Shown: positions 6,752-7,149 of the stretch, piece after piece
How the letters are laid out: each line of letters starts with the position of its first letter
Position numbering within the stretch: the first letter of the stretch is position 1
Sequence record: PQ249395
DNA length: 64,000 nucleotides
Direction: 5' to 3' (one strand)
Origin: Escherichia phage Pu-Krd-SF1
The notes under the pieces: generated by a model
Seen by the model: the letters and a program-made list of their open reading frames with translations, nothing else
What the model was told of the DNA's origin: nothing
Database searches by the model: none
Position numbers and translations under genes: made by a program

Positions 6752-7149
6752 TTTATTGGAGATTCACTGCCTTAGTGTGAGCTAAAATCGAGGAGCCGTC
6801 GAACTGTCTGATTAATGATTTGCGAATCATTATAGTTTTAAGACCCCGGCAGTTTTACGGTGTACCTCTTGAATGTTATTCTTATAGCGGCAAGTGCATG
6901 CTACCCCGAGGTGATGGCTAATCGGGAGTACGCCTCAAGGCCTATATATCCATCAGTATATATCTTATCCTCGAGAAATCGAACCCGGAACCTTTAAGCT
7001 AACGGTGTGCAACAGATAAGAGCTATAAGGTATGATGACGGGTTTATGGTTATCCTGGTCGTTAAATATCCAAAAACCTATGTTCCCCTTGAGGGCTTGC
7101 GCAGGCAATGCCAATAAGTCCTGCATTTTCATTTAAAAGAGAATTTATA

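Follow-up and report, generated by a model that had tools for sequence, protein, structure and literature searches.

What are the 398 bp that separate the genes rIII and 30.9 in Escherichia phage Pu-Krd-SF1? The window analysed in this study, a stretch of 64,000 nucleotides (nt) from sequence record PQ249395, belongs to a T4-type myovirus (Tequatrovirus), and the gap in question spans positions 6752 to 7149. A previous sequence-only reading had pointed to this gap as a G+C-elevated island free of open reading frames (ORFs), being either a structured RNA or a decayed insert. This observation was mostly correct and has been partly confirmed, and its structured-RNA alternative is supported. No ORF of at least 60 amino acids (aa) exists between 6752 and 7149, the longest being 55 aa (minus strand, 6965-7132) and 45 aa (plus strand). 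Taken as a whole, the data are probably best explained by a new structured RNA cassette that would be co-transcribed and may act as an autonomous domain. We also show that the spacer is a chain of independently folding plus-strand RNA structures, not junk or a dead gene.

The core structured RNA is 149 nt in length (6881-7029; all features below lie on the plus strand unless stated otherwise) and is organised around a four-way junction, with eight helices plus a 6-bp kissing loop giving 52 base pairs. The fold is derived from RNAalifold, pair counts, a covariance model (R1) and a G-U strand test. Helix P1 (CTTATAGC/GCTATAAG, 6881-6888/7022-7029) closes the structure, and P1, P1a, P3 and P4 meet in a perfect four-way junction with zero unpaired linker bases. 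The arm formed by P1a (6889-6891/6940-6942) and P2 (6900-6909/6922-6933, with bulged A6927 and C6931) contains an invariant internal loop, AAGUGCAU (6892-6899) opposite CUCAAG (6934-6939), and also includes P2a (6910-6911/6918-6919). Its terminal loop kisses the hairpin loop of P3 (6943-6949/6956-6962), with TGATGG of L2 (6912-6917) pairing with CCATCA of L3 (6950-6955). P4 (6963-6969/7015-7021) opens into P5 (6971-6974/6979-6982), which is capped by a GNRA-type GAAA loop (6975-6978), and into P6 (6983-6987/7003-7005+7007-7008), and the P6/P4 joiner is GCAACA (7009-7014). Two segments are particularly well conserved: the single-stranded block AAGnGCAT of the P1a/P2 internal loop (6892-6899), which is invariant in 28 distinct homologues save for its fourth base; and GCTAAyrGTGTGCAAC (6998-7013), the most conserved block, which comprises the 3' part of L6, the 3' strand of P6 and the P6/P4 joiner, and is invariant except for two covarying P6 positions. 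P4 had already been noticed as a complementarity between ATCTTATC (6962) and GATAAGAG (7015); both strings were found, and the helix is real. The closing helix P1 and the loop-loop pairing, the latter also being inverted repeat I5, had been missed.

The evidence for this fold comes mainly from the way in which its homologues differ. Compensatory changes were already visible by eye in the first three sequences. In the first alignment, 18 distinct copies were aligned with MAFFT, which is blind to structure, and the helices were predicted with RNAalifold. In this alignment, 97.2% of the 772 pair cells held standard pairs, compared with 26-43% when the 3' partners were slid by 1-3 columns; double-sided changes were present in 20 of the 43 pairs, and none of 500 shuffles reached any of the observed measures. 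The covariance model R1 gave a single match in the window (175 bits, E = 2e-37) and recovered all copies in the IMG/VR, metagenome and GenBank loci. In the alignment A4, with 28 distinct sequences including metagenomic and diverged copies, 31 of the 43 modelled pairs were compensatory and 98.8% of the cells were paired, the latter value being inflated because A4 was fitted to the model, a bias from which the MAFFT alignment (A2) and the kissing loop are free. Slid controls over both alignments gave 25-43% paired cells. Covariation in relatives, which had been named as a check in the sequence-only reading, is therefore present, with at least one compensatory pair in every helix of the 149-nt fold, including P6 and P1a (GGC/GCC became GGU/ACC in the IMG/VR contig L057).

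The kissing loop was revealed by mutual information on the unpaired columns, as the top three pairs all join the P2 loop to the P3 loop. The resulting helix, UGAUGG/CCAUCA, is paired in 95.2% of cells, and four of its six pairs are compensatory, with CGAUGG/CCAUCG, CUAUGG/CCAUAG, CAAUGA/UCAUUG and UGCAUU/AAUGCA among the variants. As R1 treated both loops as unstructured, this support is unbiased. Other tertiary contacts were considered and rejected: kissing of the P3 loop with the 'UAUGAUG' of M2, a downstream module described below, because the P3 loop varies whereas M2 does not, and pairs in fact with the P2 loop; a GAAA tetraloop docking into an 11-nt-receptor-like motif (UAUGG / CCUUUAAG), because there was no covariation and the P5 loop is not always GAAA; and a K-turn in the P1a/P2 internal loop, because the tandem G-A signature was absent on inspection by eye. 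A pseudoknot between GCAU (6896-6899) and GUGC (7007-7010), replacing the lower P6 pairs, is possible; the bases involved are all invariant and thus offer no covariation.

The pairs hold 53 G-U cells versus a single A-C cell, and therefore the plus strand is the folded strand. Such a bias would be unexpected of a DNA palindrome, and it bears on the notion that the segment is not an RNA at all, but a decayed gene or transfer RNA (tRNA), a miniature mobile DNA element, or a DNA-level site (for instance, an origin or a recombination hotspot). The sharp-bordered presence/absence polymorphism of the segment, its 8-bp inverted ends and its location in a module-shuffling hotspot would all fit this notion. 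However, there is one copy per genome, no target-site duplication is found (including at the T4 junction), and the supposed terminal repeats covary as a helix, so that a mobile element resembling a miniature inverted-repeat transposable element was rejected. A protein gene or pseudogene was rejected as well, since there is neither an ORF of at least 60 aa nor a conserved reading frame, and the substitutions are compensatory, without a codon pattern. The same applies to a leader peptide beginning at ATGATG (7032), as this ORF ends after 3-34 codons and its sequence is unrelated between genera. Moreover, the "decayed insert" of the sequence-only reading is contradicted by the finding that the segment is the best-conserved DNA of its neighbourhood, with 84-96% identity to the window across genera compared to 69-75% for the gp31 and rIII genes. 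BLAST searches of 5,426 E. coli genomes and 72,556 plasmids gave no match that would point to a host or plasmid origin. We therefore give practically no credence to a non-RNA explanation, and consider the DNA-level and decayed-gene readings essentially excluded.

The hint of a tRNA, which came from a T-loop-like GGTTCGATT on the minus strand, was wrong. ARAGORN found no tRNA and no transfer-messenger RNA in the 64 kb, and the motif is not conserved as a T-arm (GTTCRANYC), being replaced by GGTCCGATT or GGTCCA in relatives; this segment is the complement of the plus-strand GNRA hairpin P5. A tRNA or degenerate tRNA was thus rejected, the motif being both unconserved and on the wrong strand. Similarly, the core is not a paralogue of T4 rnaC or rnaD, as R1 run over the T4 tRNA-rnaC-rnaD region with filters off gave a best score of only 6.7 bits. 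Rfam 15 (4227 models including riboswitches, ribozymes, RNase P and small RNAs) gave no match within 6881-7029, even at E = 10 on 176 nt, and was also blank for the core on 1.2 kb plus three loci representing the main-, Karamvirus- and Slopekvirus-type copies. Keyword and conserved-string searches across 8 million papers gave no description of the element or its sequence. On the strength of these sequence and model searches, we regard the core RNA as a new family, none in Rfam 15 corresponding to it.

How is this RNA distributed? The core lies within a 155-bp cassette (6877-7031) that is absent from T4 and many other Tequatroviruses, as seen from an alignment with T4 GT7, from 42 rIII-locus spacers and from the BLAST coverage classes. 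T4 has "GA" in place of 6877-7031, between ...TTGAATGT and ATGATGAC..., and the flanking genes are identical between Tequatroviruses that carry the cassette and those that do not. When the gap was compared to 50,697 phage records by BLAST, 178 covered at least 80% of it, while T4 and many others covered 61% in two pieces. The cassette alone was found in 405 records, one copy each (406 places), mostly with 91-100% identity. Its carriers include Tequatrovirus, Klebsiella phages, Karamvirus, Citrobacter phages Moon and Merlin, Edwardsiella phage PEi20 and Serratia phages, in which it again sits between rIII and a 30.9 homologue, and the rIII proteins of these genera are 70-77% identical. Further diverged rIII-linked copies occur in Escherichia phage EcS1 and in L057. 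A 32-nt match (H160) exposed yet another diverged copy in Slopekvirus K41P2, where the conserved block 6998-7013 was the only part that BLAST detected. The Slopekvirus-type copies (L021, 1399-1548; L028, 9225-9376; L026, 923-1074; the latter two from IMG/VR) lie elsewhere: in L021, and likewise in L028, the RNA is in the 3' untranslated region (UTR) after uvsY.-2, facing the convergent uvsW. There it is followed by further hairpins and then by a bidirectional terminator (about 150 nt on in L028), with no conserved small ORF in between. All 14 metagenome matches and about 20 IMG/VR matches are on contigs consistent with T4-like phages, with sizes of 143-179 kb for the complete contigs, and two degenerate-pattern scans of 185,579 species genomes yielded no match. 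These comparisons show a plus-strand RNA fold that is under purifying selection, phage-restricted, single-copy, dispensable and modular.

Several points weigh against our interpretation. The minimum free energy of the single sequence is no more stable than that of shuffled sequences (z = 0.03), and the evidence is therefore comparative, not thermodynamic. The breadth of the comparison is also narrow, since only T4-type phages of Enterobacterales are represented, most copies are more than 90% identical, and the effective sequence number in the model is 1.21; thus, many compensatory cells stem from few events. In the lower two P6 pairs and in all of the tertiary contacts, the bases never vary, so that no covariation is possible there. 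Transcription, processing and stability of the core RNA are all properties that we infer from sequence. The RNA is dispensable in the laboratory, as T4 lacks it. Finally, the RNA is located in the 5' UTR of 30.9 in about 95% of the carriers, which leaves room for a role in cis, and its architecture (a junction closed by P1, a loop-loop helix and invariant junction-proximal loops) is typical of riboswitch aptamers.

These last two points lead to the possibility that the core is a cis-acting leader of 30.9, either a riboswitch aptamer or a protein operator (possibly for gp30.9 itself), that would control translation or stability of the 30.9 cistron in the rIII-30.9 message. In all rIII-linked copies, the RNA is 84-200 nt 5' of 30.9 on the same strand; the P1-closed junction, the kissing loop and the invariant internal loops are aptamer-like; gp30.9 is small, very basic and of no known family; and, as judged by eye, a UCUCC..GGAAGA hairpin in most non-Tequatrovirus genera could sequester the 30.9 ribosome-binding site. 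However, the core does not look like a dedicated leader, because: its spacing to 30.9 is variable, other modules being interposed in some genera only; no alternative pairing with the P1 3' strand was found, that is, no competing terminator or Shine-Dalgarno-sequestering partner, and no terminator-like site separates the RNA from 30.9; no gene lies downstream of the Slopekvirus copies, and they apparently lack 30.9, which was not detected on their contigs; and 30.9 is 100% identical in phages with or without the RNA (e.g., RB27, RB32, T2 and T4 GT7) and is twice as widespread as the RNA. More than half of the phages with gene 30.9 lack the RNA (838 versus 405 records), as do 18 of 38 contigs. 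In addition, the sequence 3' of P1 differs by genus, no expression platform was found, and Rfam contains no matching riboswitch. We therefore regard a cis-acting leader as possible but rather doubtful.

Instead, we propose, tentatively and with somewhat less than even confidence, that the core acts as an autonomous factor-binding RNA domain and not as a dedicated 30.9 leader. Having no recognisable promoter of its own, it would probably be transcribed within the rIII-30.9 message, which would start at the late promoter at 6356 and also stem from upstream early/middle promoters by read-through, and would stop at the terminator at 7330. The two invariant internal loops would be kept in a fixed geometry by the kissing loop and the junction, and the resulting specific binding surface would be recognised by a host or phage factor, whether a protein, a small molecule or another RNA. 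For the phage, the benefit would be accessory and host-dependent.

Alternatively, the core might be a new-class self-cleaving ribozyme or a processing signal that cuts the rIII/30.9 message or trims the 3' end of the Slopekvirus uvsY operon. Small ribozymes are common in phage DNA. The hairpin ribozyme has a four-way junction with two side-by-side loops, and the VS ribozyme has a kissing loop and internal loops; the four-way junction of the core, pairing two invariant internal loops, recalls the former, while its kissing loop and internal loops within about 150 nt recall the latter. Its intergenic or 3' UTR position, independent of any particular gene, would also be in line with such an activity. 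In contrast to both ribozymes, the core has no similarity to either of them in sequence or by covariance model, no conserved cleavage-site signature was recognised, and no ribozyme family of Rfam matched even at E = 10 on 176 nt. Catalysis would be a candidate activity, and one that we think unlikely.

It could also be argued that the structure needs no partner at all, and that the folds passively shield the rIII-30.9 message from RNase E, RegB or exonucleases, or simply space the cistrons. The entire spacer consists of hairpins and a pseudoknot, there is a RegB-type GGAG motif in a hairpin loop (6792-6795), and T4 manages without the core. Yet a passive barrier needs neither 16 invariant single-stranded bases and an invariant internal loop nor a covarying 6-bp kissing loop, and it need not exceed the flanking genes in conservation. 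The single-sequence folding energy is also unremarkable. This makes a purely passive role very improbable.

Like the purine (L2-L3) and lysine (L2-L3 kissing loop) riboswitches, the core has a P1 helix, a multi-helix junction and two arms joined by a Watson-Crick kissing loop, and, as in junction riboswitches generally, its invariant bases are in junction-proximal loops and its size is within 70-180 nt. It differs from them in that it has no Rfam match, its four-way junction has zero linkers, its fourth arm is branched, no expression platform is present, its order relative to the downstream gene varies, and one lineage has no downstream gene. The core may conceivably represent the founding member of a new T-even-type RNA class, either an aptamer sensing a ligand or macromolecule or a new small ribozyme, although we hold this to be doubtful. 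T4 rnaC and rnaD (species 1 and 2) are likewise small (119-139 nt), dispensable RNAs of T-even phages, but they are encoded in the tRNA cluster, and rnaC has a tRNA-like arm at its end whereas the core has none.

A more concrete version can be formulated from the invariant motifs: AG(n)GCA and UGCAA would form a double T-loop-like platform docking a host RNA, e.g., the tRNA elbow. The invariant UGCAA and AG(n)GCA fit the UG..A / AG..A core pattern that has been described (PMC3664808), and the 10-mer GTGCAACAGA at 7007-7016 of the window is identical to positions 125-134 of E. coli rnpB (L126), which in RNase P RNA form the J11/12 strand that assists in docking the tRNA elbow. On the other hand, the expected platform pairs do not fit, the RNase P models are blank, and the local alignment is not above shuffles, so this similarity is a lead only. 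Homology to the RNase P specificity domain was rejected, as it consists of this 10-mer only and 52 of 2000 shuffles equal it. If tRNA docking did occur, the phage could sense, shield or sequester tRNA during infection, for instance against anticodon-nuclease defences, and, if this holds, the M2 pseudoknot and the alternative M4 module would turn the rIII-30.9 spacer into an exchangeable "RNA accessory island".

According to a 2010 review of post-transcriptional control in T4, neither a riboswitch nor a trans-acting regulatory RNA had been characterised functionally in this phage, and its relatives might supply candidates (PMC3014915). The core RNA is such a candidate, having an elaborate fold like that of a riboswitch or small ribozyme and covariation in every helix, and the absence of precisely this cassette from the reference phage T4 is probably why it was overlooked. 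Binding of a host factor or a metabolite, if it occurs, would represent a new layer of phage-host interaction. The RNA might also serve as a new tool.

The core is not the only structured module of the spacer. The probable H-type pseudoknot M2 (7031-7083) follows it in the window, and is present also in T4 (L002, ~1122-1175) and in a Klebsiella phage (L003, ~1917-1970). Its stem S1 is ATGAC/GTCGT (7035-7039/7058-7062), extended by GGG/CCT, with the A-rich linker CGTTAAATATCCAAAA, and in Pu-Krd-SF1 its S2 is probably formed by TTTATGG/CCAAAAA (7043-7049/7070-7076), through which the first loop would pair with the sequence past the linker. In the M2 alignment A5 (20 variants), both helices show covariation: 81.7% of cells are paired compared with 25-56% when slid, and 39 cells are compensatory compared with 7-12. 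The pseudoknot is only probable because the register of S2 in Tequatrovirus differs from that in other genera. The order of the modules is variable: the core lies 5' of M2 in Tequatrovirus, Karamvirus, Moon, EcS1 and L057, and 3' of it in Klebsiella and Serratia phages and in PEi20.

Downstream of M2, the window contains a small G-C hairpin, TCCCC-TTGA-GGGCTTG (7084-7099), which includes CCTTGAGG. The sequence-only reading had proposed a long-range pairing between CCTCAAGG and CCTTGAGG. Both strings exist, CCTCAAGG being at 6933 instead of ~6923, but the pairing is lost in relatives: in L008, CCTTATGG replaces CCTCAAGG, yet CCTTGAGG is retained. This helix was rejected, since it is unmaintained in relatives and its second arm is part of the small CCC-loop-GGG hairpin, which is on either side of the RNA depending on the genus. 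The hairpin, GTACCC-N4-5-GGGGCTTG, occurs once in the window and is a wandering module (window, 7084-7099; L021, ~1556-1575; L004, ~1982-1999; L020, 1427-1445). It is 3' of the core in Klebsiella phages, PEi20, Serratia phages and Slopekvirus, and 5' in Karamvirus and EcS1, where the CCC..GGG hairpin bearing the CCTTGAGG arm lies upstream of the RNA. A further hairpin, GCAGG-N14-CCTGC (7101-7124), was read from the sequence just before the weak Shine-Dalgarno sequence and ATG of 30.9, and was not called by the terminator scan. In non-Tequatrovirus genera, a conserved hairpin, (U)CUCC-N4-6-GGAAGA, is found just 5' of the 30.9 start (L003, ~2205-2245; L048, L046, L062 and L057), in place of the GCAGG..CCTGC hairpin of Tequatrovirus. 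By its sequence, it could sequester the 30.9 Shine-Dalgarno sequence.

Upstream of the core are three other structures. M3 (6765-6779) is a small hairpin with a bulged U, CAC(T)GC-CTTA-GTGTG, for which pairing-preserving variants were seen by eye in relatives: CGC(U)AC..GUGCG, UGC(U)AC..GUGCA and AGC(U)AC..GUGCU. It is directly 5' of the core in Klebsiella phages, PEi20 and L057. The second, read from the sequence, is a small hairpin, TCGA-GGAGCCG-TCGA (6788-6802), with the candidate RegB motif GGAG (6792-6795) in its loop. The RegB endoribonuclease of T4 targets GGAG, and the RIII protein has been reported as an inhibitor of S1-dependent RegB activation (PMC9409239). The third is a two-tier hairpin (6803-6853; inverted repeat I3) with the outer stem ACTGTC/GGCAGT (6803-6808/6848-6853), enclosing the perfect 8-bp hairpin TAATGATT-TGCG-AATCATTA (6813-6820/6825-6832) that had been placed correctly at 6813-6832 by the sequence-only reading. 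Compensatory variants were again evident by eye (L045, ATTGTC/GACAAT and TATCGATT/AATCGGTA; L036, ACTGTT/AACAGT).

The slot between TTGAATGT and ATGATGAC can be occupied by the core, by a hairpin of about 50 nt (M4) or, as in T4, by nothing. The M4 cassette, TACTATCACGCGTCAGAAAAAGGTTATCTGTCTAAGTCGTGGTTGGT, is found at the rIII loci of other Tequatroviruses (L030, ~3375-3425; L036, L037, L041 and L043), and related forms are present in L047 and EcS1 (L020, ~1685-1720), with an inner stem that covaries by eye (CAGA/TCTG versus CAGC/GCTG). No spacer module recurs elsewhere in the 64-kb window. Judged by these arrangements of its sequence, the spacer behaves as an exchangeable island of structured RNA modules, a hotspot at which such modules are swapped between phage genera. 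This form of accessory-genome evolution has so far been described mainly for protein genes. PeSL (promoter-early stem-loops), said to have been reported by Arbiol, Comeau and Krisch in 2010, are short non-coding modules that reportedly move among T4-type genomes and serve as markers of plastic regions. The rIII-30.9 spacer resembles them in its module swapping and in the alternative cassette in one slot. However, PeSL consist of an early promoter and a simple stem-loop, whereas in the core cassette the fold is complex and covarying and no promoter-like site is present.

The composition of the spacer was also examined. The region 6840-7110 is 45.8% G+C, as compared to 35.9% on average over the window (z = 2.46, among the top 2% of 271-bp windows), in agreement with the enrichment that had been claimed; the "AT-rich flanks" were a misjudgement, since rIII is 41.4% and gene 30.9 is 45.2% G+C. 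For the whole 398 bp, the value is 42.0% (z = 1.69, top 6.5%). The enrichment is real but confined to the central ~150-270 bp.

As for the surroundings, the segment 6400-7500 matches Escherichia phage Pu-Krd-SF5 with 100% identity and many Tequatroviruses with 99%. The plus-strand gene order is cd, 31.2, 31.1, gene 31 (6020-6355), rIII (6503-6751), the 398-bp gap, 30.9 (7151-7327) and 30.8 (7437-). The upstream neighbour rIII encodes the lysis inhibition accessory protein, as supported by its ORF, a match to PHROG 1457 (E = 4.7e-44) and the annotation in relatives. Gene 30.9, identified by its ORF and the T4 annotation of gp30.9, encodes a very basic protein of 58 aa that matched no Pfam or PHROG family, and it is present in 838 phage records; a 72-aa ORF at 7108-7326 is the same gene with an upstream ATG taken as its start. 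A T4-type late promoter motif upstream of rIII (6356-6363), an exact match to the T4 late-promoter consensus TATAAATA, is the nearest recognisable start of a transcript carrying the spacer. The terminator scan revealed a strong intrinsic terminator (7330-7351), with a 9-bp stem followed by a T-run, that closes the rIII-30.9 transcription unit. The gap is therefore inside a plus-strand transcription unit ending just past 30.9. The promoter scan found no sigma-70-like site between rIII and 30.9, and a promoter directly 5' of the core was rejected, since sigma-70-like and TATAAATA sites are both absent there; near-match promoter sites 5' of the Slopekvirus copies are not shared. Weak Rfam matches at 7282-7365 (Atu_C8, 31 bits; Phe_leader, 21 bits) are both below the gathering score and were rejected, as they merely reflect the terminator hairpin of 30.9. 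Some GenBank records carry annotations over the spacer that appear spurious (e.g., "1,4-alpha-glucan branching enzyme" and tiny hypothetical proteins), and the "hypothetical proteins" are calls of 30-40 codons made by automated gene callers.

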